Notes: generated by a model from the sequence alone, not told the origin. Counted from the stretch's first letter, positions 2,733-53,914 are shown. The stretch is DNA of 55,129 nucleotides from a virus (IMGVR_UViG_3300014911_000007:1-55129); one strand, 5' to 3'. Numbers and translations: made by a program.

Positions 2733-4610
2733 ATGGCGCAGAATATTATTGAACCACAGAAAGTCACTGGCGATCTTCAGTTAGCCGAATTGTTGGCAGA
2801 ATATGCCCGCGCTAAGCGAGAGACCGAGGACTTCCATAAGAATATTATTCGCTGGCGGAATTGGTATAACTTCGAACATTACAAGCGGGACCCACTTCCA
2901 GGCGAGGAGCGGTATACCGATCCAACCCCAACGAATGTGGTGGACACGGCAGTTGGAATTATGTTAAGTCGTGGGGTTCGTTGGGTGGCGTCTGGATTTG
3001 AGCCGTATGCCACTGAGACCGAAGTCGCCAGTAAGATTGAGAAGTACATCGCTGGTACGGTAGAGGCGAACAATATCCGCGAAGAGATGGATGTTCTGGC
3101 GATGGTGGCGACATACTTTATTAGAGACGGCATGGGTGTTATCTACTCTCCGTTTGATCCCATCTTAGCTGATGACTTAGCCACGCAGGTCATGGTTCCG
3201 GCTCCCGGCGGGGACGATGTGATGATTATTGAGGGCTTTATGGAGACGCCGCTTCGGGTTCAGGCTATTGACCCGCTGAACATCGCTCTTCTGCCGGGCG
3301 GCCCTCAGCGGTGGGGGTCGATCTTCAGGACAGAGCGCATGACCGTTTATGATGTGGAGAACCTATATGGCGTTCAACTCAACAACTGGAAGCACCTGAC
3401 CGATCAGCAAAAGATGACCCAGTACGGCCAATTGATTGATATTTGGCGATGGGTTCGCAAGCCGAAGATGGAAGCCGGACAGCTTCCTTTGGATGGCTTT
3501 GAAGGGGAAATGCCGGTTTCCCTGCGGGAAGAGTGGGTGGTCCAACACGCCGTTATCTTTGAGAAGGAGTGGATTTACGAACTAGAGGATACGGATTATC
3601 CAGACATTCCTTATACCATTGGCTTCTTCAAGCCTGTAGACCCGGCAAAGACGAAGAATTGGTCTCATAGTATTATAAGTCCGCTGGAGGATTCGACCGC
3701 CTTCGTCGAGAAGTCCATCAACCGGCGGCAGCGGCAGATTACCATGCTTACCGGTCTGCCTCTTATCGCCCGCTTGATGCAGGGTCGAACCATTGCAGTC
3801 GACGCTTCTATAGCGAACGTGGTAACTATCCACCCAGACGAGAACCTGGAGTTCCCACGCTGGCCTGGAAATCCGCCAGACGTTGAGCAGCAGCTACAGT
3901 TCTTCCAGCGTCGTCAATCGCAGGCAGGCTTCTCCGAGCCTGATTTGACGGGCGGGGCGGCTTCTGGTTACGCGCTATCGCAGGTTGCAGATGCTAACAA
4001 GATCAAGTTGCAGCAGCCTATCCGTCAGTTCGAGTTCCTGCTGACTAACTGGGCGCGTAAGCTGCTGCGCCTGACGGCTAGAATGGCGGCGGGTAAAGCC
4101 ATCCATGTCTATGGTAGTCTGCGTGGGCAGAGCTTTACTGACCAGATTATCGCTCAGGACTTCGCCACTTATCTCGTCCGGGCAAAATTGGAGCCGGAGT
4201 ATCCGGGTGAAGAGGTCCGCAAGAGCGCCCTGGCGACACAGGCTACAGGTAAGATGTCGCTCGAAACTATTATGCAGCGCTACTACAATATCCAGCAGCC
4301 GGATGACGAGATAAAGCGCATGATTAGGGAGCAGGCTAAGATGCACCCATTGGTTATCGAATACGGCATCCGAAAGTACCTCATGGAGCTTGCGGATGAA
4401 GGCGACGAGGCAGCCATTATGACGTTGATGGCTATGGAGCAACAGGCTGGCCGTGGCGGGGGCGGAGCGGCTCCTGGTCCTCAGCCGTTGGGAGGCGTGA
4501 TGTCCGCTACTGGCGAGCCGACGCCACAGGAACGCGGGCGGCGGCCTCCTGGACAGAATGAGGAAGAGGTCGTTGGAAGCCTAGCAAACTTGGCCCCAGG
4601 ATTGGAGTAA
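2733..4610 (+). CDS. Portal (head-tail connector) protein
   Basis: 625 aa directly after TerL; size and motifs (QAIDPLNI, YPDIPY, SIISPLE, AASGYA) fit podovirus portals. Confidence 0.8.
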   Translation: MAQNIIEPQKVTGDLQLAELLAEYARAKRETEDFHKNIIRWRNWYNFEHYKRDPLPGEERYTDPTPTNVVDTAVGIMLSRGVRWVASGFEPYATETEVASKIEKYIAGTVEANNIREEMDVLAMVATYFIRDGMGVIYSPFDPILADDLATQVMVPAPGGDDVMIIEGFMETPLRVQAIDPLNIALLPGGPQRWGSIFRTERMTVYDVENLYGVQLNNWKHLTDQQKMTQYGQLIDIWRWVRKPKMEAGQLPLDGFEGEMPVSLREEWVVQHAVIFEKEWIYELEDTDYPDIPYTIGFFKPVDPAKTKNWSHSIISPLEDSTAFVEKSINRRQRQITMLTGLPLIARLMQGRTIAVDASIANVVTIHPDENLEFPRWPGNPPDVEQQLQFFQRRQSQAGFSEPDLTGGAASGYALSQVADANKIKLQQPIRQFEFLLTNWARKLLRLTARMAAGKAIHVYGSLRGQSFTDQIIAQDFATYLVRAKLEPEYPGEEVRKSALATQATGKMSLETIMQRYYNIQQPDDEIKRMIREQAKMHPLVIEYGIRKYLMELADEGDEAAIMTLMAMEQQAGRGGGGAAPGPQPLGGVMSATGEPTPQERGRRPPGQNEEEVVGSLANLAPGLE

Positions 4611-4618
4611 GGCTTACT
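4606..4618. repeat. AGTAA-N3-TTACT palindrome
   Basis: AGTAAGGCTTACT spanning the portal stop and the next gene start. Confidence 0.85.
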
Positions 4619-4828
4619 ATGAAAGACATTTTCGACGAAGTAGTTAAAGAAGTTAGCAAGGGAATTATCGAGGGGGTTGAGGTGTTTGGTGCAGATCGGG
4701 ACCCCGATCTCCGCGTCTACAATCGCTTGGATCAGGACGCGTTTGACAAGCTGGCGAAGCGTTATGGATTTGAGAATGTAGCCGAATACATTCGACAGAT
4801 GGAATTAAAGCGCTTAGGAGTGAAGTAA
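4619..4828 (+). CDS. Hypothetical virion-module protein
   Basis: 69 aa, tightly packed between its neighbours. Confidence 0.65.
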   Translation: MKDIFDEVVKEVSKGIIEGVEVFGADRDPDLRVYNRLDQDAFDKLAKRYGFENVAEYIRQMELKRLGVK

Positions 4829-4829
4829 C

Positions 4830-5993
4830 ATGGCATTAATTGGACCCTCTAAAATCAGCGGCAGGACTGTCAGAGCATCACGACGTGGGCCGAGATATTC
4901 GTATATGTCTATCAATCCGGGCCTATATCGTCAGCGTCCTAAGCCTCGCATACGAACTGCTGGTCAAAAGAGAACTCTTTCGCCGCGGTTTACGGGGCGC
5001 GGAATTACGACATTCCGGGTGAGACCGCCTACACCGCCATTGACGCCCCCGGACTATTCTAAGCAAGTTCAATATCCCGGCCTCACGCCCGAGGAGAGCT
5101 TCGAGGTCGAGGATATGATGCGTCGCTACAACATACGAACAACGTTCGGCGGTGCGCCGCCGGGATATGTTGAGAATCCTTTCGAAAAGGGCGGTGGGTT
5201 CACTATTACACCGGCAGGGGGTGGGGGTGGCGGCGGGATTCTACCTCCGCCTCCGAGTGAGGAATATGGCTACCAGCCCATAGATGTCGAATGGGTGATC
5301 GGTAATTACGCTGTATCGGACAAAGCTCCATCCTGGTGGAGACCATTCGATATCAAGGATAAGAGCCAGTACAATCGCCCCGATGTGGCATTTACCCTAA
5401 TGGCGAATGCGCTTATCGGCAGCGGCGCGCTAAGCGATGAGGATGCTCGTGCCTTGGCAAAGCAGCTTTATGCGATGTGGGGCCGAGCCGGAGAGAATCC
5501 TTGGGATATCTATTCCGATAAGTTTGCTGACGAGAATCGACCGCCGGGTCGTCGTATTGGAGCACAGGGCCAACCGGCTATTTCCCGCCAATTGGCACTG
5601 ATAGGGCAAACGGCTCCTGGTGGTGTGATTGATGAACGAAGCATCTATTCCCGCGAACGGGCCAACCGAATCCTACAGGCATTGAGTCGTATGCGGGAGG
5701 CTACGGTCGGCGGGAACGTTTGGAAGTTTGGCCCCGGTTACCAGTACCTACAAAATATAGCCGGGGCGCTGGGGACGGCTGGCCCAGTGGCACGGACACG
5801 GGCACAAAGGCTGGAGGTACTCGGAGCGTTAGACCCGCTTCTGGCTCAGGCTAAGAGCGGTGAATTGTCAGCGTTTGCTCCACTGGCCCAAATGATTGCG
5901 CAGCCGTTCTACACCTACGCGCCGCCGAGGGTTTCCCGAACCCAGGAGGGTCGCTACCAGTTTGGACGCCGGTCCAAGTATCTAACATTCTAG
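4830..5993 (+). CDS. Probable internal virion (ejection) protein
   Basis: 387 aa; Arg-rich N-terminus, Gly/Pro tracts, helical Ala-rich C-terminus; lies before the giant protein. Function inferred. Confidence 0.5.
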   Translation: MALIGPSKISGRTVRASRRGPRYSYMSINPGLYRQRPKPRIRTAGQKRTLSPRFTGRGITTFRVRPPTPPLTPPDYSKQVQYPGLTPEESFEVEDMMRRYNIRTTFGGAPPGYVENPFEKGGGFTITPAGGGGGGGILPPPPSEEYGYQPIDVEWVIGNYAVSDKAPSWWRPFDIKDKSQYNRPDVAFTLMANALIGSGALSDEDARALAKQLYAMWGRAGENPWDIYSDKFADENRPPGRRIGAQGQPAISRQLALIGQTAPGGVIDERSIYSRERANRILQALSRMREATVGGNVWKFGPGYQYLQNIAGALGTAGPVARTRAQRLEVLGALDPLLAQAKSGELSAFAPLAQMIAQPFYTYAPPRVSRTQEGRYQFGRRSKYLTF

Positions 5994-6002
5994 GAGGGCA
6001 TA

Positions 6003-6296: not shown

Positions 6297-6297
6297 T

Positions 6298-9200: not shown

Positions 9201-12200
9201 CCGGTGGTGGCTACACCCGCTGAAGGGGCTTCGAGGCGTCAACACCGCTTTCGAAACCGTCTTCCGCATGCGGACTTATGTCCCCTTATTCGTGAAAGAC
9301 TGGAACGTTGTCCAGCGGCTTATCCATGAGGCACTGCTCGCTGAGAAAATCCTTGATGACCCTATAGTCAAGGCTATCTTTGAATCCCTATCGGCGGTCG
9401 ACACGGCGGATACTGCCACTATTAACGAAATCCTCCGTACACTAGTAAGGCAGGACCTTGTTGATGCTTCGTACACTCGGTCGTTGTTCTTCCGCACCGG
9501 TTGGTATGATGAGGTATACAAGCGGCTTGGAAGCCATGCTGAGACTAAGGTCTACTTGCGGCGGGTTGCCTCGTCATTAATGGAAGAGGTCCAGAAGGGC
9601 GGCTTGACGCCCGAGGGCGTTCAGCGAGCCTTCCAATCTGTACTGGACGAAATTGATGCCCTCGAACGAGAGGCGGTTGCTGTTGCAGATGCTACTCGCG
9701 GGGTAGACGAGGGCCTCAATACGAAGCCGGATATGGACGACATGCTTGGCGGGGCGGATGAGGTCCGCGAGATTGATCCAGAAGTAGCTGGGGTTCAGAG
9801 GAGCGCCAAGCTAAAGGACGGCTACCTCATGTACCCCGAGGCGGATGGTATCCGTGATGATCAGCACTTGTTGAATGCTATTAATAAGTACAGCGAAGGC
9901 GAGTATAAGAGCTTGGATGAAGTTCCCGTCCGCGTCGCCGAGGACGCCTTGAGTGTCCGTCGTGAGCGGAAGGGTATCACTTATGTCCCGCCTACAAAGG
10001 CCCAGCGGGAGGCGGTTGAGGCGCTAGAGCGGGAAGTTGCGGAACGCGAGGCCAAGCTAGTAGAGGAACGCCTGAAGGCGGTAACGGCCCCTGAGCCGCC
10101 GGAGTCGGCGGTAAGGGCGGCCCCAACTCCTGAAATTCCGTCGTCTCGGGTGGTTAGTGAGGTTCCGGTCGGCTACCACTCCGACCCAACGAAACTCATA
10201 GACCCCGATATGGTGGACCCAGGCTATGAGTATGAGGGGTTATACCACGTAACGACCGCCCGCGATAAGGTTTATGACGAAGGCTTGAAGCCGCGCGCTG
10301 AAACCGGTCGATTGGGATTGGGACCGGGCGGCAGCATAACCGATGATGGCACGCGAGTAAGCCTTACTTACAACTATGCCCACGCCGAAGAGCTTGCTAA
10401 TGGTCTACATCTAGCGGCTAGAGTAGCACAGGGTAAGGCGACCGTTAAGGAGGTAGTCGATTGGACCCTTGATCGCCTTGAAATAGGAGGCGCTTTAATG
10501 GAGCCTCCGACCAATGTTCAGCATGTTTTGAACGAAGCCCTTCCCATCCCGCGTGATGATGCTGGGAGTTGGGATTGGGAGATTTTGGACGATGTTATTT
10601 ATGAACTGGACGACATCCTCAACGACAAAGAAAAGTATGAACTACTTCAGGACCTTGATGATGTAATTTCAGTTCTGATCTCGGATATTTCCTCCATCAG
10701 TGGCCTAGAGGCCCCATATCTCCCTGTCGGCCTAACGGCTCCGTATGAGGCGATGGCCGAGCTAGACCCCAATCAAATCGAAATCCTATCTATCGCTGTC
10801 CGAGATGGTGCAGAGGTTGAGCATATCCCAATAGAGTTTGAGTTCCGCGTGAAGCCGGAGGATTTGGTCGTTATTAGACGGCCAGAAGAAGAGTTTGTTT
10901 CCCCTGTCTCAATCGAGTACAAGGCGATGAAAGAGGCCGGAGCGGATACTCTGCCACCGTTCGTCGGCGGGCCGCTCTCTCACGCCAATTATCAGTGGGA
11001 GATCACCGCTGGCGAGAATATGGGCCGGACAGGGAAGCTCTTGGATCGCCGCATCACGCCTGATGGTAAGGTTCAATACTTAGTTGACATAAGTGAATCC
11101 GCTGATATCGTCCCGTTCCTTGATGAGGATATGGAAGGCTTGCGGGTTTGGGTGGACGCTGCCAATATCCGCGGTAAGCTGCCGGAAGATATCCGTGCCG
11201 CCACCTCCCGCATGGGTCACATCATCAATGCCGTAGTGGAGGAGGGGGAGCAGGTTGACGACTTCGACGAAATCCTCCGTCGCTATCTAAGGCTGTCCGC
11301 CGAGGAGCGTCGCCAGCTTGACCCACGACTAGCGAAAGAATTCGAAGGCGTAGCTGATGAAGTCGTCCAGGAGATGAACTACTACACCTATTGGCGGCGG
11401 AAGTTCTTGACTGGCTATGACGCATCTGACTTTGACGAATCGTTCATTCTGAAGCAGAAAGCCGGGTCGAATTATCCTGATTGGTACCGACGCCTAACCG
11501 AGAAACGGTGGAAGGACCTGCGCCGTGCCCAGGCGCACGCCATGGCGGAGAAGGCGTTCCAGATTCTCGGAGCGGGTGAGCAGCCGAAGTACGCCTATCT
11601 TGTGCAGATTAGAAGTCGAACTGGTGAAGAGGCATGGGAGGTTATCACTAGCGACGCGGCAGTCAAAGATATGGACGAACTTGGCGCGCTCGTCAAGTCG
11701 CTTAAGGGAGAAGATGTAGAGGTCGCCGATGTCGTTAGAAGCCGACGGGCCAAGACTAGGGGCGGTATCTACATCGAGAAGCCACGCAATATGTCACGTG
11801 CCCTCAACAAACTAGCGTATGAGGATGGCGTGGAGGTCGTCCTTGATCGTGCGCTAAGCGAACATGTCGTCATTGATACGGCTATGGAAGGCGCAGGCGA
11901 TGTCGGTTATCCTGTCCCGCCTCGGCCTTACGTTTCCTATTTGGTCGGGAGTGACATGGAAGACGTTCGGGAATATGCTACTCGGTTCTTCACTGAGGAA
12001 GAAGCCGAAAGATTCCTTAAGGACCTGCTTCCAAAGGCCGAGGAGCCTCCGAGCCAAGCCGCTGTGCAGTTTGCAGAGGATGTTGAAGAGGCGGTCGAGG
12101 AGGGCCAGGACGTGCCGCCGGTGCCGGAGCCGACCGACGAAGAGATTGGCCCCGTTGAGCATCAAGAGCCGGTGCCAGAGTCTAAACTGGAAGAATACGA

Positions 12201-15200
12201 AGCAGTCTTTATTGAGAAGACTGAAGACCTACCGAATGAAGTTCAAATCCACTTACGGGATGAATTGGAGCGGGCTAAGGCTCGCTACAAGGAGGCAGGC
12301 GAGGCCGAAGCTAAGGCGCGTGCGCGGGTCAACGAGTTTGCTACCCGCCTAACGGAGGCTATGGCCCGCGTTGCAGATGAGGCGACGGCCAAGACTTTGC
12401 GCGAGGCACTCGCTTACATCCTTCAGTTTGATCGTGATTATACGTGGATGGTCACAAACACCCGCTTCCACGAATGGTTGATTGAAGACTATCTGTTCGC
12501 TGGGAAGCGAAGATACGCAGCGGCCAGCCTACACAACTACATCTATTGGTACGAAATCAAGCGGGAATTCTACGAGGCGATGGGGAAACGCTTCGACGAA
12601 ATCTCCGATCTTATCCGTGCGGGTAACTATGACGAATTGGCTCGCCGGTTTAGAGATGTCGAGTTCCCATCCGTAGTGGACATCTTTGAGGACATCGGCT
12701 TCGAGTTCCAGTTTGATAACGCAGGGAACTTGGTGGGTATGCGCTGGAACAAAGACCTACGCTTCCAGCTTACCGATACCTATTATACCCATTCCAATGG
12801 CCTGTACAGGTTCCAGCAAGCAGTCCGGCGGGTAGGCGAGGAAGAACTAACAGCGCCCTACACTCGTATATTGGATGCTAAGCCCGCATCAGGAATGCCG
12901 GAGGAAGTGGCTAAGGCCATGCCGGTCCCAGAGAGCGAAATAGCGCGGGCGGAAGGTGTAGAGGCCGAAGAGCTTTTGAAGCCGACGGAGCCGCCTGAGG
13001 AGGTCGATGAGATTTGGGAGACCATCCGAGCCAAGCCAGGATATGGTGGGGCCTATAACGAAGCGTCGGCACGCGAGTTAGCGGAAATGGACGAGCCGCT
13101 GCGCGGCCCATCACTGAACTTCATCTATGGCCGAGTAACGGACGACGATGGCGCACCAGTGCTTAGGTCATTTGCGGACTTCGAGCGGTTTATGAAGGCA
13201 TCCATAAGTAAGGCTTACGAGGCTGGCGACACCGCTAAGGCTCAGATTTTAGAATGGCGACTACAAACTGTCCGCCAGGAGTACAATGCGCTTCGAGAGG
13301 CGGCGGGGCTTGCCTCCAGTTCGTACAAGCTGCCGGAGCTTGAAACCCTGCCACGAGACTTCCAGCGGCTAATCTTGGAAGGCACCCAGGCTGTAGACCG
13401 AGCGCAGGTTCTTCGAGAGCTTACTAAAGACTGGATGGATGACCTTATCCGCCGGATTGAGGACGGCGAACCCGCCTTGGTCGCCAACTTGACCGCAGAG
13501 CAGCGAGAGACGCTTGAGCGGCTGCGCCAGCGGTGGACAAAGCTCATTAGTGAGGGTCTTGAGACCGTAAACTATGGCGGAGAATTCCTAGGTGTGAAGT
13601 TCCCCGGAGCGGTTCATGAGACGAATCGCTTCCTGCTGAACTACAACGAGTTCACGCCTTTCGACCAGTGGATGAAGAACTGGGTCCCATTCTGGATGTT
13701 CCCGTCGCGCACGATCCCAATGTGGCTAGAGACGATGGTTCTGCACCCAGAGCTTGCCGCCTTTTATCTGAAATATCTCGGTCTCAGTCGCCGCCAAGCG
13801 TGGCGGGCCGGGCTGACGACCAGAAACGGCGATCAACTACCGTCCGCTAGGGGCTATATCCGCATCCCCGGCACTGAATACTGGGTGAACCTGTTCGGGC
13901 CAATTTCGATGCGGTACGCAATCCCAGCGTATATGCCGTACTCATGGGAGTACGAGGAAGATAAGGATTTGACCATCTTCCAGAAAACAACCCGCTACGC
14001 TTGGGACATACTCAATATGTTCGGCATGTCCCCGAACCCGCTTATCCCGTGGATTTTGCAGCAGGCCGGATGGCTGGATGCCAATGAGGACCCACTCTGG
14101 CCGCTTATTCCACAGCCAGGGCTAGTGCCTCCTAACTTCCAGCGGGTGATTATGAGCCAACTGCGGAAGATCGTCACGACCGCCCCGGATAAGTGGGACC
14201 CAGACGTTGGCTGGAAAGACTTCCTAATCGACAGGGAGATCGTGAACATCGGCCTCCAGCGGGCACTGGCTACTCAGGACCCAGAGGAGCAGATGCGCAT
14301 CTACCTGCAAACAGTAGCGGCGCTGAAGAACCGCAATCGCCGTCTCGTGACTGGCGACCGGGCTGGGGAGTACGTCTCCGCAGAGGGGGCAGAACTATAC
14401 CTGGAGGCCCGAGATGCCGTCGAGTCTCGCGAATATAACCGGCGGGTGTTCGGTTACTTCACAGGTATCTACCCGAAGCAGTTCACCGACGCGCAGGTGC
14501 TACTAATTCAGACCAGGACAGAGTTCAACGCCTTGGCTATGGCACTTAATAGCTTGGTTGGGATGAACATGCTCGAACTCGACCCAGAGGCCGAGAATCG
14601 GTGGGATTTCTGGATTCGAGAACGGTACCACTCGGTAGAGGGCTACTTCTCGACTCTCTACAACATCATCAGCTTCGTGACGGGGCCGGATGGTAAGGAG
14701 GTCTACGACGATGAGCGGTGGGAGATCATCGCCCAAGAGCTAACCCGCGAGGTCGAGACCCACGCTTATTGGGATACGTGGGAGGTTGCTACCAACATTC
14801 GGGATAAGAAGCTGCGGGCGCTCCCGGCAGGGGCGACTTCTGAAATGCGCCGAGCAATCTACGATGAGTTCTATCAAACCCTGGCGACTGTAGAGACCAG
14901 CGGCCTAATGGATGCGGCCCAGCGACCGTGGTTCATTGGATATAAGCCGCCGCGCTTAGTCTGGGAAGATATCGAGAGCTTCTTCTGGCATACGGCGCTG
15001 TCGGCCCTCGAACCTTATGATGCGACTAGAGAGACGTATCCTGAGTACCTAGAGAGACGGGAAGAGTTCCTGAACAATGAAGTGCCCGTTATTGTCAAGT
15101 CTTCGGAGGTTTTGTGGGAGCGGCTTGCTAAGATTGAATATCTCGATCCTTCAGTGAACAAGGTCGACGACATTATCAAGCGCCTGATGGATGTCGCCAG

Positions 15201-16380: not shown

Positions 16381-16414
16381 TTGACATAATATAGAATTTA
16401 TGGTATTATGTCAA
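16381..16414. promoter_or_regulatory. Capsid-operon promoter, symmetric on both strands
   Basis: TTGACA-17-TATTAT on both strands, produced by an 11-bp inverted repeat TTGACATAATA...TATTATGTCAA. Confidence 0.8.
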
Positions 16415-16439: not shown

Positions 16440-17291
16440 ATGGGAGTTCTCAATGACCCTGATGAAGGGGTTCTCAATCCTGAGGATGCCCTTCAGAACT
16501 TGGGAGTTTCGTCCGAAGGCGAACAGGGGGAACAGCCAACAGGCGAGATGGCCCAGGCGGGCGCTGAGGATGTCGAAAAGCTGAAGGCAGAGCTTGAGGC
16601 CGAGCGACAGCGAAGCCAAACTCTTGAGCAGGATATTAACAAGCTCCGCTCAAGCCTCGACAGACGGCTACACGAGACGACAGCGGAATATGAGGCTCGT
16701 GTCAGGGAAGCCGAAGAACGGTGGGCGCAAGCAGCCATGGCTAACATGGACGAGCAGGAACGACTTGAGTTCCAGCTACAGTTAGCCCGCGAGCGAGCGG
16801 CCCGCCTTGAAGAGCAAACTCGTCAATACGAGGAAATGCTTCAGGCGACCCAGGCCATGAATCAGTACGCCCAATGGTACATGCAGCAGGGCGTTCCGTA
16901 CACGGACCTCGACTTCTCCAGCCCCGACGCCCTGATTGCGTCCGGCACTAAGGCAATGGAACGGATCAACCAGGAGCGCATGAAGGAATTGGAGGAGTTG
17001 CGAAAGCAGGTTGAAGAGTACAAGAAGCGTGAGATGACATCGACGCAAGCAACGCAAACGCCCGCTCAGGCTCTTCTCCAGCAGCAACCTACGGAACAGC
17101 CAAAGACGACACCAGTCGTCACGCAGCATGGGGCCGCTCAGACCAAGAAGGTCTCCCCGTCGGAGGTCCTCCAGGCATTAGAGGCTCAATATCCCGGTCG
17201 TAAGTTCACCTTGGATGACCTGCTCACCATGGTTGAACAAAGACAAATTGATCCCAAGATATTGGAGAGTATCGACTGGGATAAGCCCTAA
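16440..17291 (+). CDS. Capsid scaffolding protein
   Basis: Acidic, coiled-coil, 283 aa, immediately upstream of the capsid gene; AGGAGG SD. Confidence 0.75.
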   Translation: MGVLNDPDEGVLNPEDALQNLGVSSEGEQGEQPTGEMAQAGAEDVEKLKAELEAERQRSQTLEQDINKLRSSLDRRLHETTAEYEARVREAEERWAQAAMANMDEQERLEFQLQLARERAARLEEQTRQYEEMLQATQAMNQYAQWYMQQGVPYTDLDFSSPDALIASGTKAMERINQERMKELEELRKQVEEYKKREMTSTQATQTPAQALLQQQPTEQPKTTPVVTQHGAAQTKKVSPSEVLQALEAQYPGRKFTLDDLLTMVEQRQIDPKILESIDWDKP

Positions 17292-17292: not shown

Positions 17293-17305
17293 AGTAAGGC
17301 TTACT
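17293..17305. repeat. AGTAA-N3-TTACT palindrome
   Basis: AGTAAGGCTTACT between the scaffold and capsid genes. Confidence 0.85.
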
Positions 17306-23893: not shown

Positions 23894-24594
23894 TGGGTGT
23901 TAGACCTGGAACCGGTAAGCGATATCAACGACTGACGCCGAGGGAGGGCATTCGGCCCGACTCTCGTGTCCGGCGCATTCGCATTCCGCAGCCAGAGAAG
24001 CGTCCGATAAGGCTTACTACCAGGGACGTAATCCGCCAGGAACTTCTTGAAGAGGACCCATGGTGGTTCGTAACCCACCGCCGCGGCGTCAGGCGACCGT
24101 GGGTTGGTCTAGACCCACTTGAAGCGCGGGCGGTCAGCGAGAAGTCAGTACGAGGCTACCTGCGAGAACGCATTGTTTACAAGTGGCTATTGGTGGCTGG
24201 GTTCCGAGAGGGGGTGGACTTCGATTTCCAGTCAAGTCAAGAGGGCGGGCGGATGGAACTAGGCGGTCTGGTCGTAGACTTCTTGTTCCCTAACCTGAAA
24301 ATTGCCCTTAGTGTCGAAGGGCCTCAGCACGAGAACCTCCTACGAGCACGGAAGGACGAGGAACAACGATCCATCCTTGCAGACATGGGCTACACCTACT
24401 ATAGCCTACCGACTTATATCGTCGATAACGCGTCAGAGTTTGACATCTGGATGCGGCGGGTGTTCTTCAAGTATTCGCCCACGCCTACCAGGGTCCAAGT
24501 CATGGCATTGTACGACGCGCCGGACTTATCGATCTGGGCCGAAATTCTCGACCGGCTTAATACTATGACTGAAATTGTGAGGTCTATAGGATAG
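23893..24594 (+). CDS. DUF559/Vsr-like PD-(D/E)XK-fold protein
   Basis: VVDFLFPNLKIALSVEGPQH...KDEEQRSILADMGY. Confidence 0.6.
   Translation: MGVRPGTGKRYQRLTPREGIRPDSRVRRIRIPQPEKRPIRLTTRDVIRQELLEEDPWWFVTHRRGVRRPWVGLDPLEARAVSEKSVRGYLRERIVYKWLLVAGFREGVDFDFQSSQEGGRMELGGLVVDFLFPNLKIALSVEGPQHENLLRARKDEEQRSILADMGYTYYSLPTYIVDNASEFDIWMRRVFFKYSPTPTRVQVMALYDAPDLSIWAEILDRLNTMTEIVRSIG
24006..24018. repeat. AGTAA-N3-TTACT palindrome, degenerate
   Basis: GATAAGGCTTACT (11 of 13 match). Confidence 0.55.
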
Positions 24595-32924: not shown

Positions 32925-33930
32925 CCTCCAATAATTGTTTTTCGTAGTCCTTTAGCAAGATATGAAACGGCTCGAAGATTTCCGTTTCGCCTTCCATCTC
33001 AGCCTCAATCAACTCCGCCATCCGGCCCACCGCCACCCACTCGTCCCCCTCTTTGTAGCGAACCCACCCACCCGTACGGTTAGCCAGCTTCAGGCGGAAA
33101 CAATCCATTACTGCGGTCATATGCGGAGCCACCCCGAAGGCCGGGATGAAGAACACTTGTCCTATCCGCTCCTTATAAGTGCCTCCAACTCGGAGCTTCT
33201 CAACCCGCACTTCAATCTGCCAACATCCATAAGGGAACTGCCGGTCGTTCACGTACATATAGAGCGCCACCCCGCGGGCGAAGTTCTTTGTCTTACCGCC
33301 GGGCGAGTAATGCCCGCCGACGCCAAAGGATTGAAGGCTATGATTCACTAGAATTACGGCTTTCGGGGGAGTGTGATACACTATAAGATGCGAGGCGGCC
33401 CGGCGTACAAGCTGAGCGATGTTCTGTGCGCGGCGGCCCATATTGGCATCGCCAATATCACCAGCAGCTTCCGCCGGGGGAATCCACATACCGATACTAT
33501 CTAGGATGACGGCATTGAATTCGTTCTGGGTGAGATAATCTGCAAGCTCCGTACCCATCTCGCTATGCTGGCGCGGAACTAGATTACCTTTCTTATCCTT
33601 CTTAGCCGAGTCCACCACCTTGACAACTCCGTGGAACCCAGCGCGAGCGAAGTGCTGACGTAAGTAATCCTTACTTAGCGCGCCCTCCGTGTCCATAATA
33701 CCAACCCGCCCGTCTTCCCGAACGCTTGCAGCCATCCAATAAGCCAGCGACGATTTCCCAATATGTTCATTACCGTACAACTCAATAATATTCCGAAGCG
33801 GGAAGCCTAATTCCCCGGCGTGTGAAAGGGCTAGGTCAAGAGAGAATAGACCCGTCCTGCATCGGATTACGTCCGGTATTGTTCCCCCTTCAATTGTCGG
33901 ATAGAGAATGTCATCTATGTCCATAGTCAT
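32854..33930 (-). CDS. recA: RecA/UvsX-like recombinase
   Basis: TGLFSLDLAL, ELYGNEHIGKS, MDTEGAL, ILDSI, SPGG motifs. Confidence 0.85.
   Translation of the reverse strand: MTMDIDDILYPTIEGGTIPDVIRCRTGLFSLDLALSHAGELGFPLRNIIELYGNEHIGKSSLAYWMAASVREDGRVGIMDTEGALSKDYLRQHFARAGFHGVVKVVDSAKKDKKGNLVPRQHSEMGTELADYLTQNEFNAVILDSIGMWIPPAEAAGDIGDANMGRRAQNIAQLVRRAASHLIVYHTPPKAVILVNHSLQSFGVGGHYSPGGKTKNFARGVALYMYVNDRQFPYGCWQIEVRVEKLRVGGTYKERIGQVFFIPAFGVAPHMTAVMDCFRLKLANRTGGWVRYKEGDEWVAVGRMAELIEAEMEGETEIFEPFHILLKDYEKQLLEDEDGQEENRADDEGSGGTEEESD
33661..33677. repeat. AGTAA-N3-TTACT palindrome (extended, intragenic)
   Basis: TAAGTAATCCTTACTTA. Confidence 0.8.
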
Positions 33931-33946
33931 CCTATTAGTTAGCCGC

Positions 33947-33983
33947 GCCCGCGGATGTGGCCCTCCCATTCACATCCGCGGGC
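33947..33983 (-). terminator. 13-bp GC-rich stem-loop upstream of recA
   Basis: GCCCGCGGATGTG / CACATCCGCGGGC with an 11-nt loop, intergenic. Confidence 0.6.
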
Positions 33984-34260: not shown

Positions 34261-35133
34261 TTAGCCTCCTCTCAGTTTCTTCCGAACGGCTTCCTCGCTC
34301 GGATACAGGCGCTTTCGACCATCTCCGCGAGCCTCCTCGAAGTCTCTAATATACTTTACCAGCCGCCGGAAGCCGTGCGGCTCCACGCTCGCGGCTTGGT
34401 CGGTTCCCCACATGGCCCGGTCCAGGGTGATATGTCGCTCCACAACTTGTGCTCCTAACGCCACGGCACAAACAGTCGTGACAAGACCTGTCTCGTGGCC
34501 GCTATAGCCAATCACCAAGTCGGGGTAATTGCGCTTGTAGAAATCCCGAATTGCGTATAGGTTTAGCTCCTTCAGCGGACACGGATAGGTGCTTGTACAG
34601 TGCATCACCACCAACCTTTCCGGGTCAATCATAGATAGATAGAAATCTATAGCCTCCTCCACCTCCTTCTCTGTAGACATCCCTGTCGAAATGATGATAG
34701 GAACACAGGGATATAGATCGGCCACTGCACGCGCTAAATCGCGGTCCGTCAATTTAGCCGACGGAATCTTAATCCACGGCGGTTTATATTGTACCATAAA
34801 TTCTGCTGAAGGTCTATCCCAAACCGACGCTGACCAATCCATGCCAAGGGCCTTGCAAGTAAGGCTTACAACGTTATAGGCCCCCTGCCCAAGCTCGATG
34901 CGCTCTTTATACTCGATATAGGGCATAATACCCCACGGCGTTTCCTTGGGCCGATCCCATTCGTCGCGGGGAACTGCGATACGTGGAACCCGCTTCTGAA
35001 ACTTGACAGCATCCGCACCGGCTTCGTGCGCGGCCTTAATTAGCTCCAAGGCAACATCAATGCTTCCGCAGTGGTTGATACCAATCTCCGCGATGATGTA
35101 AGTTTGATTCTTCTCCAACCTAGTCTGTAGCAC
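34261..35133 (-). CDS. neuB: N-acetylneuraminate/nonulosonate synthase (short NeuB, no SAF domain)
   Basis: IIAEIGINHCG, GADAVKFQ, IKIPSA, IISTGMS, MHCTSTYP, GYSGHE, VERHITLDR, GTDQAAS. Confidence 0.95.
   Translation of the reverse strand: MLQTRLEKNQTYIIAEIGINHCGSIDVALELIKAAHEAGADAVKFQKRVPRIAVPRDEWDRPKETPWGIMPYIEYKERIELGQGAYNVVSLTCKALGMDWSASVWDRPSAEFMVQYKPPWIKIPSAKLTDRDLARAVADLYPCVPIIISTGMSTEKEVEEAIDFYLSMIDPERLVVMHCTSTYPCPLKELNLYAIRDFYKRNYPDLVIGYSGHETGLVTTVCAVALGAQVVERHITLDRAMWGTDQAASVEPHGFRRLVKYIRDFEEARGDGRKRLYPSEEAVRKKLRGG
34858..34870. repeat. AGTAA-N3-TTACT palindrome, 1 mismatch
   Basis: AGTAAGGCTTACA inside neuB. Confidence 0.7.
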
Positions 35134-44956: not shown

Positions 44957-44985
44957 ATTATACCCAAGGCAAATTGGCCTGTCAA
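44957..44985 (-). promoter_or_regulatory. Perfect-consensus promoter of the replication operon
   Basis: Minus strand TTGACA-17-TATAAT. Confidence 0.88.
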
Positions 44986-45117: not shown

Positions 45118-45130
45118 AGTAAGGCTTACT
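45118..45130. repeat. AGTAA-N3-TTACT palindrome touching a -35 box
   Basis: AGTAAGGCTTACT; its last base is the first base of TTGCCT. Confidence 0.85.
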
Positions 45131-45158
45131 TGCCTTGCCTGCTAATCCGTGCTATAAT
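45130..45158 (+). promoter_or_regulatory. Promoter of the HNH gene
   Basis: TTGCCT-17-TATAAT with extended -10 (TG-C-TATAAT). Confidence 0.75.
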
Positions 45159-45163
45159 TCGAT

Positions 45164-45379
45164 TTGATGGTAACGAACTCGGCCTACTACCCACTTGGCA
45201 TGTGTCAACGATGCAGGTGTAAGCCTGCTGTAGTTCGTCATCATATTGTCCCTCGTGGAATGGGCGGCTCCGATGATCCGGACAACCTCATCCCGCTCTG
45301 CCTTGAGTGTCATGAATGGGTACACGCCCACGGCCCTCAAAGGCTTGTAGATTACCTTCGTTCCCTCCTTGACAGCTAG
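45164..45379 (+). CDS. HNH endonuclease
   Basis: CQRC...HHIVPRGMGGSDDPDNLIPLCLECHEWVH. Confidence 0.9.
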   Translation: MMVTNSAYYPLGMCQRCRCKPAVVRHHIVPRGMGGSDDPDNLIPLCLECHEWVHAHGPQRLVDYLRSLLDS

Positions 45380-45397
45380 ACACCAGTATAGTAAACT
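45369..45397 (+). promoter_or_regulatory. Promoter facing a non-coding structured region
   Basis: TTGACA-17-TAAACT. Confidence 0.7.
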
Positions 45398-45403
45398 CTG
45401 AGT

Positions 45404-45610
45404 GCGTCTATCCGCGGGCACCCCGTGCTTCCTAGCTCGTCTCGCCAGCGGGCTTCACTGCGATAGAAAGCGGGTCGCTCCCGCTTTCGAGGGTGGCACC
45501 CGGTGCAGTGACGAGATAGAACGAGGTCAGGAGGGGTGTCCCCTGGTGGACCGAGGCGTCAGCGTGCAAGTTATTTAGTTTGGCCCGCGCGCCTCGGTCC
45601 ATCTTGGTTT
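45404..45610 (+). ncRNA. Candidate ~200-nt structured non-coding RNA
   Basis: Nested complementary segments plus a terminal 12-bp stem; no credible ORF; own promoter. Confidence 0.55.
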
Positions 45611-50292: not shown

Positions 50293-50649
50293 CTAGATTT
50301 CGCCCTTTCGCACTCGTTCGTACCACGCGCCAATGGCTGCGCGGTAGTTAGAGTATAGGCCGACTTCTTCGATCTCCTTGAGGTTGGTGGGCTGTGGTTT
50401 ACAGTTGATCCAATCGCAGCACTTCCACAATGCCCATCCGCCGTACTCATCATGTGGGGGCCAGTAGAAGCTAATCCAGAAGCAGTGTCTAATCTCGTCT
50501 GAGCAAGCAGAGGTCCATCCGATAAGCTCGCGATGCTCACCTTGCTCTCGTGGGATACGGGTTAGTGGGTCCATACTATTCCCTCCCTTCGTCTTCCCTG
50601 GCGGCTTAGACCTCCTCGGCTTGCCGAAGTAAGGTTTACTTACTGGCAT
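50293..50649 (-). CDS. Hypothetical protein
   Basis: SD-backed starts at 50649 and 50574. Confidence 0.6.
   Translation of the reverse strand: MPVSKPYFGKPRRSKPPGKTKGGNSMDPLTRIPREQGEHRELIGWTSACSDEIRHCFWISFYWPPHDEYGGWALWKCCDWINCKPQPTNLKEIEEVGLYSNYRAAIGAWYERVRKGEI
50627..50641. repeat. AGTAA-N3-TTACT palindrome
   Basis: AAGTAAGGTTTACTT. Confidence 0.8.
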
Positions 50650-50658
50650 CGGCCTCCG

Positions 50659-50856
50659 TTAGTCTGCGAAGTAAATACGGTTGGGGTATTTATGTCCCAG
50701 CTTGACGGTTTGGCGGATGCCGTGTTGAGTGTATTCGACGACTAGGAATCCACCCCAAAAGCCCTCAATTTCCACCTCGCTTTCGTCCGACACCTCTATT
50801 CTGATGCGCTTTTTGAAGCCGAGCGGCCTATCATATTCGCAAATTAATGTTCTCAT
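50659..50856 (-). CDS. Hypothetical protein
   Basis: 65 aa, AGGAGG SD. Confidence 0.65.
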   Translation of the reverse strand: MRTLICEYDRPLGFKKRIRIEVSDESEVEIEGFWGGFLVVEYTQHGIRQTVKLGHKYPNRIYFAD

Positions 50857-50877
50857 ATCAGCCTCCTTTTTCTTCTT

Positions 50878-50896
50878 CCAAGTAAGGATTACTTGG
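50878..50896. repeat. AGTAA-N3-TTACT palindrome (longest, 8-bp arms)
   Basis: CCAAGTAAGGATTACTTGG, intergenic. Confidence 0.85.
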
Positions 50897-50934
50897 TGTC
50901 CTTGGTGGTCTCCCCTCCCATTATATACGGTGGC

Positions 50935-51096
50935 TTAGGCTCGCCAGATAATGGGATATGGGGTGTTAGGTGGAAGTCCTTTAGCTGTAGCCTCTCGCGC
51001 TCTTCGGCGTATTTTCATCGCGTATTTGCTGCGCTTGGGCTTGACTCCTCCGGCTGCTTTCTTGGCGGCTAGGGTCTTCTTGTGTTTCTTTGTCAT
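50935..51096 (-). CDS. Small Lys/Arg/Ala-rich basic protein (53 aa, not in the ORF track)
   Basis: MTKKHKKTLAAKKAAGGVKPKRSKYAMKIRRRAREATAKGLPPNTPYPIIWRA; AGGAG SD. Confidence 0.65.
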   Translation of the reverse strand: MTKKHKKTLAAKKAAGGVKPKRSKYAMKIRRRAREATAKGLPPNTPYPIIWRA

Positions 51097-51114
51097 GGTT
51101 TGATCTCCTCTCCT

Positions 51115-51129
51115 AAGTAAGGATTACTT
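51115..51129. repeat. AGTAA-N3-TTACT palindrome
   Basis: AAGTAAGGATTACTT, intergenic. Confidence 0.85.
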
Positions 51130-51186
51130 GGTATCCGTGCCGGCGGGCATCCGTCATAATTCGAGCGGCACAATCCTTACATAGTC

Positions 51187-51306
51187 TCAGCGTATCCCGT
51201 TCAACGTCGTTGTATAGATAATCGTAAGGGTGACAGTGGCGGGCGTGCCGCATAGGTGCCCGCTGATTATGCGGTTATCGTGATTATCACAGATGGCGTG
51301 ATTCAT
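51187..51306 (-). CDS. Possible 39-aa protein
   Basis: AGGAGG SD, then MNHAICDNHD... Confidence 0.4.
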   Translation of the reverse strand: MNHAICDNHDNRIISGHLCGTPATVTLTIIYTTTLNGIR

Positions 51307-51344
51307 TTCGTGCCTCCTATCTTGAAAGTTTGGCTTTCGGGGGT

Positions 51345-51602
51345 TTATACTCCCTCGCCATCGTCCAATAGGGCATCCCGCAGTGCGTCGAAGTCTATCC
51401 GGTCCACTGCGTCTTGGAGCAAATCCCAAGCAAGGTCCGCGGGTGGGCGTGCGTGTAGGTCTAGCACGTCCTCACGAATGAAATCATAAAGGGCTTCCTT
51501 TCCCTCTTGGGCTGCTTGGCGGGCTAGACTCCACGTCACGGAGTCATTGCCAATCCATGTAAAGGTCGTCCACGTTTCCTTATTTGCCCATCCGTTGTAC
51601 AT
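51345..51602 (-). CDS. Conserved-looking phage hypothetical protein
   Basis: MYNGWANKETW...W..ND N-terminus; GGAGG SD. Confidence 0.75.
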   Translation of the reverse strand: MYNGWANKETWTTFTWIGNDSVTWSLARQAAQEGKEALYDFIREDVLDLHARPPADLAWDLLQDAVDRIDFDALRDALLDDGEGV

Positions 51603-51633
51603 GCTTCACCTCCGGCAGATATCGGGATAGGGT

Positions 51634-51903
51634 CTACTCTCTAAAGTAGAGATATCGGCGCGTTTCATCTCCGAGATAGTGGTCTTTACATTCCGGCTCC
51701 CCGTCCATGCGCCATGCTTCGAATCCCCATTCGTCCCAATCACAATATTGGAATCCTCTATAGGCTCCTGCGTCCATTAGGATTCCCTGGACGAGATAAA
51801 AAACGGCATTGCGCGCCTCAGGCGTAATGTTCGGGTTCGATGTGATTCTGTTCGCACGTTCTACTAGCTTTCGCAGTGGATAAGTTTTCCTTGTCCTTGG
51901 CAT
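51634..51903 (-). CDS. Hypothetical early protein
   Basis: 89 aa, AGGAG SD. Confidence 0.7.
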   Translation of the reverse strand: MPRTRKTYPLRKLVERANRITSNPNITPEARNAVFYLVQGILMDAGAYRGFQYCDWDEWGFEAWRMDGEPECKDHYLGDETRRYLYFRE

Positions 51904-51946
51904 GACTTTCTCCTTTCTGCAAATGCCTTCCTTAAGTTACGGGGGC

Positions 51947-52207
51947 TTATGCAAATTGCCAAGTTGCGGCAACCTGTATCACTTGGGCGACGTTGCCCCA
52001 TTCTCGGCGGATGATCCCCGCTCTCCCGACAAGCTTCATTTCGCGGCGTAGCTCGTCAAAGTGGCGGCTGCATAGGTACTCTGTTTTCCATTCGCCGCGC
52101 CTCCGATAGCCTGGGCCGATGTCGATGATTCGCATTGTAACCGCATAGCGCGGCTTCATCTTGCAGAAGTGCCCGCGCGTGGTCTGGGTTCGGCAGGTTC
52201 GCTCCAT
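51947..52207 (-). CDS. Hypothetical protein with C-x9-C...C-x2-H motif
   Basis: CRTQTTRGHFC...YLCSRH; GGAGG SD. Confidence 0.65.
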   Translation of the reverse strand: MERTCRTQTTRGHFCKMKPRYAVTMRIIDIGPGYRRRGEWKTEYLCSRHFDELRREMKLVGRAGIIRREWGNVAQVIQVAATWQFA

Positions 52208-52211
52208 TGCT

Positions 52212-52391
52212 TTACCTCCGGTCCTCTAGTTCGGTTAGAATCTCGCCAAGGCCGAGGGCCAAGGTGAGGATGGCATACAATAGCAGTTCATCTTTCACCT
52301 TTGAAAAGTAGCCGCAGTCTGCGGCTCGTTCCACTTTCGAGATGAGGTCCTCGACGCTGTCGGCGTATTTCTTCGCTCGGTTTTTCATCAT
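52212..52391 (-). CDS. Small hypothetical protein (59 aa, not in the ORF track)
   Basis: MMKNRAKKYADSVEDLI...EDRR; GGAGG SD; fills the gap. Confidence 0.55.
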   Translation of the reverse strand: MMKNRAKKYADSVEDLISKVERAADCGYFSKVKDELLLYAILTLALGLGEILTELEDRR

Positions 52392-52579
52392 TCTTCCCTC
52401 CGTCTTCCGTTCTTCCGGTCCTTGCGACGGCGGCGCTCCGCGTCATTCTGGCAGGCGCGGGAGCAATATACGTAGCCGTCGGGTGCCATGTAGGCGCGGT
52501 CTCCGATATAAAGCGGATATCCGCACTCATCGCACTCCGTTTCCTCGGTGCGGCGGCTGATCTTGTACCACGTGCCCAT
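52388..52579 (-). CDS. Treble-clef zinc-finger protein
   Basis: CDECG...YCSRAC. Confidence 0.7.
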   Translation of the reverse strand: MGTWYKISRRTEETECDECGYPLYIGDRAYMAPDGYVYCSRACQNDAERRRRKDRKNGRRREE

Positions 52580-52627
52580 GTTTCCCTCCGTTCTCTGAGT
52601 GTTCGGCTTTCTACGAATTGCGGGGGC

Positions 52628-53212
52628 TTACAGTATTCGGCAAGCGGTCCAGAATGGCTTGCCCTTGTCTGCCCACATGCTATCTTTTCCCTCGATGTCT
52701 ACTCCGATACAGTATTCCCGTTCCTGAGGTTGGCCTAGGATTGTGAGCTTGATTCCGAATGCCTGCGACTTCCATTTGAATGGTGGCGCTTTTTTCAGTG
52801 GGAGGGTGAAGCGGAGTCGCTCATCCCATGAGGCCCACGCGCGGCTGACCTCTGGGCATCCGCACGCGTGCCCGTGGTCTTCCGGCGTTGGGCATGTCGG
52901 ATAGAACATATAATAGTCTAGTAATAGTGTTATGCCTTTGTACCGTCTAATGCGGGCCTTTCCGATACTCTTCCAGACGGGTTCCAAGCTCGGCGCTCGT
53001 GGTATGTAGTAAGTCGATTTGCCTTGGGGGAGCTTTCTTTCTGTCAGTCTGTAAGCGTCCCTACGTAATAATCGATCCGGTTCTATTCTTATCGTCTGTC
53101 CACTGCCCATGAGGTAGTGGCCTAGGAAGTAAAGATGCTGAAAGCGTTTCCACTTCCAGAGGCCAATTGCTTTCAGCATTGCTCCAAATAGATAGCAGAG
53201 GATTCGCTTCAT
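52628..53212 (-). CDS. Hypothetical protein
   Basis: 194 aa; GAGG SD. Confidence 0.7.
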   Translation of the reverse strand: MKRILCYLFGAMLKAIGLWKWKRFQHLYFLGHYLMGSGQTIRIEPDRLLRRDAYRLTERKLPQGKSTYYIPRAPSLEPVWKSIGKARIRRYKGITLLLDYYMFYPTCPTPEDHGHACGCPEVSRAWASWDERLRFTLPLKKAPPFKWKSQAFGIKLTILGQPQEREYCIGVDIEGKDSMWADKGKPFWTACRIL

Positions 53213-53240
53213 GGTGCATCCTCTCTTCGTTTTCGGGGGC

Positions 53241-53471
53241 CTATTTAGCAGCTAGGGCGACGTGGCGGCAATTCCAAGCGATGCCTAGCAAGTAGCTAAA
53301 CGGGCCTCCGCCTGTGAAGTGCGCTCCGGCCTCAGTGAGGGGCGGCTTGTCTGTGCCATGCCTCTTGGCGTGCATGATATCGGCTATCGCTTCACTCTCT
53401 GATAGGATAGCCGTCCATTGCAGGGCGCGGATCAGTCGCGGGTATCGGCGGCGGATTTCTTCACGGTTCAT
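53241..53471 (-). CDS. Hypothetical protein
   Basis: 76 aa; GGAGG SD. Confidence 0.65.
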   Translation of the reverse strand: MNREEIRRRYPRLIRALQWTAILSESEAIADIMHAKRHGTDKPPLTEAGAHFTGGGPFSYLLGIAWNCRHVALAAK

Positions 53472-53499
53472 GGGTCCCTCCCTTCTCAGTTTCAGGGGC

Positions 53500-53718
53500 C
53501 TACATCTCGCCTCTGTATCCGTGGCGGGCGAGGTCTAGGGCTTCCTGGATAGCCTGAGCCTCCGTCCAGTGCGGTTTGGGCTTCACTGTCATTTCGTGGT
53601 ATTCAACCTCGAATACTTCCAGTGGGAGCGGTGAGGTCTTGGCGAAGTTGTCGGCCTCGTCGCGGCTGTCAAATATCCCTGCTGGCGTGCTCTCGGTCAC
53701 GGCTATAAAGTAGCGCAT
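53500..53718 (-). CDS. Hypothetical protein
   Basis: 72 aa; GGAGG SD; GIFDSRDEA motif. Confidence 0.65.
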   Translation of the reverse strand: MRYFIAVTESTPAGIFDSRDEADNFAKTSPLPLEVFEVEYHEMTVKPKPHWTEAQAIQEALDLARHGYRGEM

Positions 53719-53887
53719 CTTCGCCTCCGTCCACTAGTTGCGGGGGCTTATATCCTCCGCTCAATTCTAATAAGCATCGACTCCATTGTAGGCGCTCCGC
53801 CTCATCTTTTGGCGGCTGGTATGCTATCAGTGCTGCGGCGGCAATAGCAAGGATTCGATCAGGGGTCTTTCGGCTGGGATATTGCAT
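53669..53887 (-). CDS. Hypothetical protein
   Basis: 72 aa; GGAGG SD. Confidence 0.55.
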   Translation of the reverse strand: MQYPSRKTPDRILAIAAAALIAYQPPKDEAERLQWSRCLLELSGGYKPPQLVDGGEDALLYSRDREHASRDI

Positions 53888-53899
53888 GAATGTGCCTCC

Positions 53900-53914
53900 A
53901 AGTAAGGCTTACTT
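53900..53914. repeat. AGTAA-N3-TTACT palindrome
   Basis: AAGTAAGGCTTACTT next to the SD of the gene starting at 53887. Confidence 0.85.

Follow-up and report, generated by a model that had tools for sequence, protein, structure and literature searches.

Sets of identical short sites spread over a whole genome are rare in phages, and those that have been studied, namely stoperators, the hairpins of phage N4 and nick motifs, each revealed an unusual mechanism. Here we describe such a set, a 13-bp palindrome with the arms AGTAA and TTACT, in the uncultured virus IMGVR_UViG_3300014911_000007. The window, by which we mean the whole stretch of DNA that was analyzed, is the entire IMG/VR record of this virus (55,129 bases, estimated to be 86% complete and without end repeats). 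Because a 3359-aa giant protein encoded in the window is also on record on a 67,571-base contig, about 12 kb are missing from the window, and we place them between the early genes and the terminase. An initial annotation had described the palindrome as a dispersed protein-binding system with no obvious cognate repressor, comparing it with mycobacteriophage stoperators and with matS/parS-type sites.

The stoperators of cluster A mycobacteriophages, which belong to repressors of the L5 gp71 type, resemble the palindrome in being 13 bp long, numerous and dispersed, and in lying at promoters and in short intergenic spaces. In the published description, more than 20 such 13-mers occupy short intergenic spaces, and they are proposed to block initiation as well as elongation (PMC9283540). 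Stoperators are asymmetric, are bound by a monomer and are oriented with transcription, whereas the sites in the window have palindromic arms and an orientation that does not follow transcription. Unlike the stoperator phages, this phage looks lytic, and neither a repressor nor an integrase was seen in the scanned open reading frames (ORFs) of the window; for integrase, no match was found in 54 ORFs with Pfam or in 19 ORFs with PHROGs, in a record that is 86% complete.

A different precedent is provided by the OB operators of KorB from the IncP-1 plasmids RK2 and R751. RK2, a plasmid of about 60 kb, carries twelve OB sites, some of them far from any promoter (PMC13768133), and a KorB OB oligonucleotide has been printed as GGGATATTTTAGCGGCTAAAAGGA (PMC11790492). 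The two systems nearly coincide in site format and copy number: both consist of dispersed palindromes, with 12 copies in 55 kb here and twelve in about 60 kb on RK2, and both have a 6-1-6 arrangement over 13 bp as we read the oligonucleotide. The 13-bp OB core that we take from it, TTTAGCGGCTAAA, is our own reading. The sequences differ, however, and KorB is a plasmid-borne CTPase clamp of the ParB family that works with KorA. No ParB-like Pfam match was found among the window ORFs scanned, about 12 kb of the genome being missing, which leaves nothing behind the matS/parS comparison.

The promoters of the N4 vRNAP have a 5- to 7-bp stem and a 3-nt loop and are read on the template strand, with specific contacts at -11 (A/G), -10G, -8G and +1C (PMC4496689). 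The palindrome shares with these early promoters a short stem, a 3-nt loop with G-G or G-A on the 5' side in the template strand, and a position upstream of early genes. The N4 stems differ from one another, are C:G-closed, carry G-R-A loops and form three promoters at one genome end, and the polymerase is recognizable. The stems in the window, in contrast, are invariant, A:T-closed and spread over the whole genome, and no polymerase was found. Nick motifs are short sequences, 13-14 of them in a genome of about 45 kb, that occupy one strand regardless of transcription and are kept among phages of little nucleotide similarity; phage tf has two convergent gene sets as well (PMC3517423; PMC11780129). 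The palindrome is like those of tf (TACT/RTGMC), phiKMV-like phages and T5 in copy number, strand bias and retention of the word in distant relatives, and unlike them in that nick motifs are asymmetric, strictly confined to one strand and not biased toward intergenic DNA.

A dispersed palindrome at gene junctions

A count of the pattern AGTAANNNTTACT (AGTAA-NNN-TTACT) in the window returned nine perfect copies, starting at 4606, 10356, 17293, 33663, 45118, 50628, 50881, 51116 and 53901, which are the nine that the initial annotation had listed; the reversed control pattern had no match in the window. Dinucleotide shuffling (100 shuffles) gave a mean of 0.03 copies and a maximum of 1, and a third-order Markov model predicted 0.021 copies with any middle and 0.004 with a GGN or NCC middle, so the original hand estimate of about 0.02 chance matches was sound. 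When all genes were shuffled among synonymous codons 1000 times, the mean was 0.01 copies, with at least one copy in 10 shuffles and two or more in none; two perfect copies lie inside genes, against that mean of 0.01. The enrichment therefore survives both the Markov and the codon model that had been proposed as checks, and no other word of the window approaches the palindrome in over-representation.

Three near-copies were accepted in addition, those at 13207 and 34858 with one arm mismatch each, at the outermost base, and that at 24006 with two; all three had been described before and are real. One-mismatch matches at 19797 and 39680, of which about 0.8 are expected by chance, were not counted, their middles being GCG and GTC. 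All 12 accepted copies read AGTAAGG-N-TTACT on one strand (N is C in eight, A in three and T in one), in keeping with the earlier description of the spacer as GG(C/A/T) or its reverse complement. Eight of them form the full 6-1-6 palindrome AGTAAG-S-CTTACT, and the other four (33663, 50628, 50881 and 51116) depart from it at a single inner position, each with one more A...T pair on the outside. The two stem arms do not covary in any copy, and the three imperfect copies break the pairing rather than compensate for it. The sequences flanking the copies are not common to them, so nothing suggests spread by copy-and-paste. Only near-identical variants at low depth were present in contigs of three DNA runs, and no RNA run was listed for the early region. 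One such contig, 260 bases long and covering the copy at 53901, has 10 differences, of which the seven listed lie outside the motif; we draw no conclusion from it.

The copies are concentrated at gene junctions. Seven of the 12 touch non-coding DNA, as do 5.2% of all 13-mer positions (binomial P 6.5e-7), and five lie inside ORFs, a distribution that bears out the initial account of copies at junctions, against a -35 box, next to Shine-Dalgarno (SD) sequences and within ORFs. The copy at 4606..4618 (+), AGTAAGGCTTACT, overlaps the TAA stop of the portal gene and abuts the ATG (4619) of a 69-aa ORF, where the only SD-like sequence, AAGG, is supplied by the motif loop. That at 17293..17305 (+) is fully intergenic, beginning 2 nt beyond the stop codon of ORF 16440-17291 and leaving 58 nt to the major capsid gene (17364), and that at 45118..45130 (+) lies in the AT-rich gap of 230 nt that separates the early from the replication genes, where its last base is also the first of the -35 box of a sigma-70-like promoter on the + strand. 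Four intergenic copies, all with GG on the + strand, precede genes of the - strand in the early region: 50628..50640 (GGT) is 53 nt before an ATG at 50574, 50881..50893 (GGA) is 24 nt before the ATG of ORF 50659-50856, 51116..51128 (GGA) is 19 nt before that of a 53-aa ORF (50935-51096), and 53901..53913 (GGC) is 13 nt before that of ORF 53669-53887. An SD sequence stands between motif and ATG at the last three of these. The 50881 copy forms an 8-bp stem together with its flanks, and the 53901 copy comes directly after a GC-rich stem-loop.

The copies inside ORFs are spread over four genes. The 3359-aa ORF contains one perfect copy with GG on the - strand (10356..10368) and the near-copy AGTAAGGCTTACG with one mismatch (13207..13219, +), and the degenerate copy GATAAGGCTTACT with two mismatches (24006..24018, +) lies within ORF 23893-24594. 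A copy with GGA on the - strand (33663..33675) falls in a RecA-like gene (32854-33969, -), and the near-copy AGTAAGGCTTACA, again with one mismatch (34858..34870, +), falls in a NeuB-family gene for a sialic or nonulosonic acid synthase (34261-35133, -).

Ten of the 12 copies carry the GG side on the + strand (two-sided P 0.039), as do all seven junction copies (P 0.016). Relative to the genes, the GG falls on the template strand where a copy precedes an early gene of the - strand (the four at 50628-53901) and on the sense strand at 4606 and 17293. The orientation of the copies does not follow transcription, yet it is not random. The initial annotation had stated that orientation does not track transcription, which is correct overall but misses both the + strand bias of the GG and its place on the template strand at the four early copies.

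Relatives of the 3359-aa protein are few (P0002, G001, G002, G003, L137 and G004:C1); the sizes of the sequences that encode them include 61.8 kb for G001 (96% complete), 22.6 kb for G002, 71 kb for L137, a metagenome contig, and 68.7 kb for G004:C1. The closest, G002, was found through the motif word itself. Its large terminase (TerL) is 54% identical to that of the window, its portal 51%, its capsid protein 67% and its giant protein 35%, and its GC content is 47% vs 54%. G002 carries two exact copies of AGTAAGGCTTACT, one in each orientation and both at junctions that are non-homologous to the window sites, so that the proposed check for conservation in relatives finds the exact word twice at 35-67% protein identity. 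The copy at G002:132 comes right after a hairpin with a 13-bp stem behind the capsid gene, 26 nt before the next ATG, and that at G002:17819 coincides with an ATGA where stop and start overlap, ahead of the terminase region and inside the first codons. The hairpin behind the capsid gene (G002:150-185, L132), which in the sense direction comes just before the G002:132 copy, has one motif arm, AAGTAA, as its loop.

Among 139 loci listed by scans of IMG/VR with the GGC form of the word, G002 alone is syntenic with the window, and it carries two copies. The matches listed by the motif-word scans of IMG/VR were almost all single and chance-like. At least 10 loci had two matches to AGTAANNNTTACT, and these were mostly AT-rich with random middles; two exact copies occur in L037/G006, both inside ORFs and without protein similarity to the window, and two in the 104-kb fragment G005. 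The word is absent from G001, from G003 and from 21 kb of L137. In 1.06 Mb of capsid-related loci the only copy with a GGN or NCC middle was G002's own (L134), and two other loci had perfect arms around unrelated middles. A single copy, inside a gene, occurs in G004:C1, and its middle is GGG. No palindrome family with at least three copies was found in G001, G002, L136, L137, L140 or G004:C1; because the detector misses even the promoters of N4 itself, this negative carries little weight for hairpin promoters. A search of INPHARED returned no relative of the phage, and the SNF2 protein used alone as a query returned none from IMG/VR. Judged from these sequences, the word is a property of the clade formed by the window and G002, within which the letters were conserved while positions and surrounding DNA changed.

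A candidate operator for a dimeric protein

Because the palindrome is so strongly enriched and recurs as an exact word in a relative of such divergent proteins, we regard it as a selected recognition element, and it is almost certainly the recognition site for some protein. To that extent the dispersed protein-binding system of the initial annotation stands; its further step, a protein bound to duplex DNA, is one that we infer. Our preferred reading, to which we give a probability of roughly 40%, is that (a)AGTAAG-S-CTTACT(t) is an operator at which a dimeric DNA-binding protein acts on gene junctions throughout the genome. The ten invariant arm bases, the palindromic form and the junction bias together suggest a site that is read base by base, and the lack of covariation, with pairing broken in the imperfect copies, argues for base-specific reading over an element recognized by structure only. 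The most ordinary base-by-base reader would be a dimeric DNA-binding protein.

The promoters of the phage point the same way. A perfect sigma-70 consensus (TTGACA-17-TATAAT, 44957..44985, -) precedes the SNF2 and replication genes, and consensus-grade sigma-70 sites are also found in the gaps at 332, 16381 and 29578. Because such sites stand before late, lysis and replication genes, at least these genes are clearly transcribed by the host sigma-70 RNA polymerase, and a DNA-binding regulator would be the ordinary means of timing them. No good sigma-70 site on the - strand was found in the gaps of the early region within the window. The copy at 45118 overlaps a sigma-70-like promoter (TTGCCT-17-TATAAT with TG before the -10 box, 45130..45158, +) that points at a gene for a 71-aa HNH endonuclease (45164..45379, +; PF01844, E 2.1e-10, 41 bits against a cut-off of 21.4), which starts 33 nt from the copy. 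The 45118 copy and that at G002:17819 each abut a sigma-70-like -35 hexamer, in the latter case the -35-like TTGAAA of TTGAAA-17-TAAACT, and two of 28 site-directions score at least 9/12 for a promoter, against a background of 0.0038.

Under the operator reading, a homodimer would read the two 6-bp half-sites on double-stranded DNA. At the HNH promoter, where the site would span about -47 to -35, the bound protein could occlude or assist the host RNA polymerase; at junctions without a promoter, the bound site might form a roadblock or serve for loading, in the manner of mycobacteriophage stoperators and KorB OB sites. The cognate protein could be an orphan early protein, a product of the missing 12 kb or a host factor.

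Several observations weigh against an operator. A promoter-like site is overlapped by only one of the 12 copies in the window (45118), and the promoter-like site in G002 may be due to chance because it lies inside a predicted ORF. No DNA-binding domain (HTH, RHH or ParB) was found in the 54 window ORFs searched with Pfam or the 19 searched with PHROGs, nor in the 10 G002 ORFs upstream of the terminase, where sugar- and methyltransferases are found instead; no cognate repressor can thus be named, as the initial annotation had noted. A symmetric dimer also leaves unexplained why the middle of the four copies that depart from the 6-1-6 form is always GG-N and never G-C-N, and why the GG favors the + strand both overall (10/12) and at junctions (7/7). 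We know of no host-regulator motif, including LexA variants, NarL and others, that matches the palindrome.

Hairpin promoters, RNA elements and nick sites

The template-strand GG at the four early copies keeps alive the main rival to the operator reading, a rival that we nevertheless consider unlikely: that the copies are DNA-hairpin promoters of the N4 type, with 5- to 8-bp stems and 3-nt loops extruded under negative supercoiling, at which a phage-encoded and possibly virion-borne RNA polymerase would read the 5'-GG of the template loop and start early transcripts a few bases downstream. The stems in the window do measure 5-8 bp around a 3-nt loop, and the invariant 5'-GG of the loop corresponds to N4 positions -10/-11, with a variable third base. 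All four early copies read AAGTAA-(T/G/A)CC-TTACTT with GG on the template strand, and for those at 50881 and 51116 the sense strand reads AAGTAA-TCC-TTACTT and the distance to the next ATG is 24 and 19 nt, as against 13 nt at 53901. In the N4 genome the hairpin before gp1 is GTTGC-TTC-GCAAC, and that before gp2, which ends 12 nt before the gp2 ATG, is (AA)GAAGC-TCC-GCTTC(TT) on the sense strand; we take the two hairpins in that record, EF056009, to be P1 and P2. Strong stem-loops immediately precede the copies at 53901 and G002:132, a terminator-then-promoter layout, and the 3359-aa virion-module protein, the contig of about 67.5 kb and the convergent gene arms give the phage a superficial likeness to N4. 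As hairpins, however, most copies have a predicted stability of -1.4 to -2.5 kcal/mol, vs -3.7 and -5.2 for N4 (DNA parameters). The stems never covary, the loop-closing pair is A:T, and the loops (eight GGC, three GGA and one GGT) are not of the stabilizing G-N-A type. The 4606 copy is of no use to the next gene, because it abuts the ATG and a start site would not fit in between; at the junction copies of the late region GG is on the sense strand, the orientation is wrong for half of the copies outside the early region, and the two G002 copies point in opposite directions. The polymerase is missing as well: PF00940 gave no RNA polymerase candidate in G000, G001 (96% complete), G002 or G003, while in the positive control it detected N4 RNAPII (E 1e-14) and, weakly, N4 vRNAP (E 0.007). 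The giant ORF had no PHROG, Pfam or PDB-sequence match, no BLASTP match to N4 gp50 and no match to polymerase motif patterns. Its two conserved parts model as all-helix at low confidence (pLDDT 54 and 52), and its center, around aa 1000-2300, is the least conserved part. A Foldseek search with one of the two models had no match at E <= 0.001, a weak result because the models are of low confidence, and the central part had no usable ESM Atlas match. Relatives that carry the giant protein and are more distant than G002 lack the motif. A bolder variant, which we hold to be very improbable, is that the copies are hairpin promoters for a polymerase of no known kind, either part of the 3359-aa virion protein or carried along with it; with 10 of 12 pointing leftward from the early end, some antisense to late genes, transcription would both express the early genes and pull the genome into the cell, and the phage would represent a second, independent lineage with the N4 strategy.

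An element acting at the RNA level, a transcribed hairpin beside a ribosome-binding site that would serve as a translational operator, as an antiterminator-loading (nut-like) site or as a processing or stability signal for an RNA-binding protein, could explain why, in the window and G002 together, seven of nine junction copies have a start codon no more than about 26 nt away and why those at 4606 (0 nt) and G002:17819 overlap the initiation region itself; an Arg/Lys-rich protein of 53 aa is moreover encoded right after 51116. Read as RNA, however, the loops of the 14 copies are mixed (five GGC, five GCC, two UCC, one ACC and one GGA), and the conserved GG belongs to a DNA strand rather than to the transcript, so we judge this explanation improbable. 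The 5-bp A/U-rich stem is also marginal (DNA parameters), five copies lie deep inside ORFs, and covariation is again lacking. No better are the prospects of recognition sites for a phage endonuclease that nicks packaged DNA, as in T5, phiKMV-like and tf/LUZ24-like phages, with the HNH protein as a possible enzyme. The copy number, the + strand GG of 10 of the 12 copies, the retention of the word in G002, the convergent layout of the genome and the HNH gene 33 nt from one copy would fit, but known nick motifs are asymmetric and occur both inside and outside genes (PMC11780129), whereas this motif has palindromic arms and a strong preference for intergenic DNA. In the window two copies are reversed, in G002 the copies point one each way, and the 71-aa HNH core has no evident specificity domain. 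Chance or compositional bias is effectively refuted by the three null models, with 0.01-0.03 copies expected, and by the two copies in the sole window-related contig among the 139 loci listed; that unrelated IMG/VR contigs (L037/G006 and G005) occasionally have two copies does little for it, and together with a tiny functionless selfish repeat it is scarcely credible.

Genome setting and other repeats

The gene arms of the phage are convergent. The + strand from 1 to 30.9 kb carries virion and lysis genes, with TerL at 1142-2731, a portal with a weak Pfam portal match at 2733-4610, the 3359-aa ORF of the virion module at 6298-16377, the major capsid gene at 17364-18362, a 1659-aa fiber at 24596-29575 and a GH25 lysozyme at 29966-30700. 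Replication and recombination genes occupy the - strand from 30.9 to 45 kb and include those for an exonuclease, a family-A DNA polymerase, a DnaB-like helicase, an SNF2 helicase, the RecA-like protein, NeuB, UDG and a DnaG-type primase. From 45 to 55.1 kb the - strand holds about 35 small orphan ORFs with good ribosome-binding sites; the start of this early region lies beyond the window end. The 53-aa ORF right after copy 51116 (50935-51096, -) encodes a very basic, Lys/Arg-rich protein containing KIRRRAREA, the composition of a nucleic-acid binder, and has no PHROG match. The HNH gene is on the strand opposite to all its neighbors and looks like a free-standing mobile endonuclease gene in an otherwise uniform - strand array; because it is on the + strand, the overlapping - strand ORF 45152-45421 is probably spurious.

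The family of the 3359-aa protein is an orphan: among 5.8 billion clustered proteins two match, including the protein itself, and a few contigs add to these. Homologs are found in L006, L134, L136 and L137, with aa 560-1010 and 2290-3310 as the conserved parts. The protein, in which no known domain was found, is possibly an ejection or internal virion protein. Sugar-modification genes seem to be carried by these phages, NeuB in the window and a transferase cluster in G002, where genes for a methyltransferase, a GT2 glycosyltransferase, a hexapeptide transferase and an MptE-like protein lie upstream of the terminase (L018 7293-10205). The contig L244/G004:C1 (68,720 bases) is syntenic with the window (identities of 45% for TerL, 46% for the capsid protein and 41% for DNA polymerase), and its permuted gene order relative to the window suggests that it is probably a complete phage genome. 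It is one contig in a metagenome-assembled genome titled uncultured Anaerolineales bacterium, a weak hint at the host.

Three other repeats were observed. The word TTGACATAAT occurs four times in the window, at 332 and 16381 and, in reverse, at 16405 and 46504; at 16381-16414, between the giant ORF and the next gene, two of these form mirrored, overlapping promoters with TTGACA-17-TATTAT on both strands. A second junction motif of the - strand, TA(A/G)-N-CCCCCG(C/A)AA, opens with an early gene's stop codon and lies 15-40 nt ahead of the next start. At least three exact 12-mers (49219, 52618 and 53738) and at least four variants, in the gaps ending at 51344, 53240, 53499 and 54594, were found. 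Finally, GGCGGGCGA is present five times on the + strand in the last 1.6 kb (53523, 53994, 54249, 54759 and 55084) and also at 24682 and, reversed, at 39760; these repeats may reflect coding bias or be iteron-like repeats near the truncated end.

The palindrome thus gives an uncultured lineage with an orphan virion protein of about 3300 aa a clean set of sites, with 12 copies and an invariant word kept at 35-67% protein identity, and the options for its function are narrowed to four testable mechanisms: an operator, a hairpin promoter, an RNA element or a nick site. Were the hairpin-promoter reading true, the interest of the system would be high. The site could also serve as bait for its cognate factor and as a means of learning how genes are timed in these phages.

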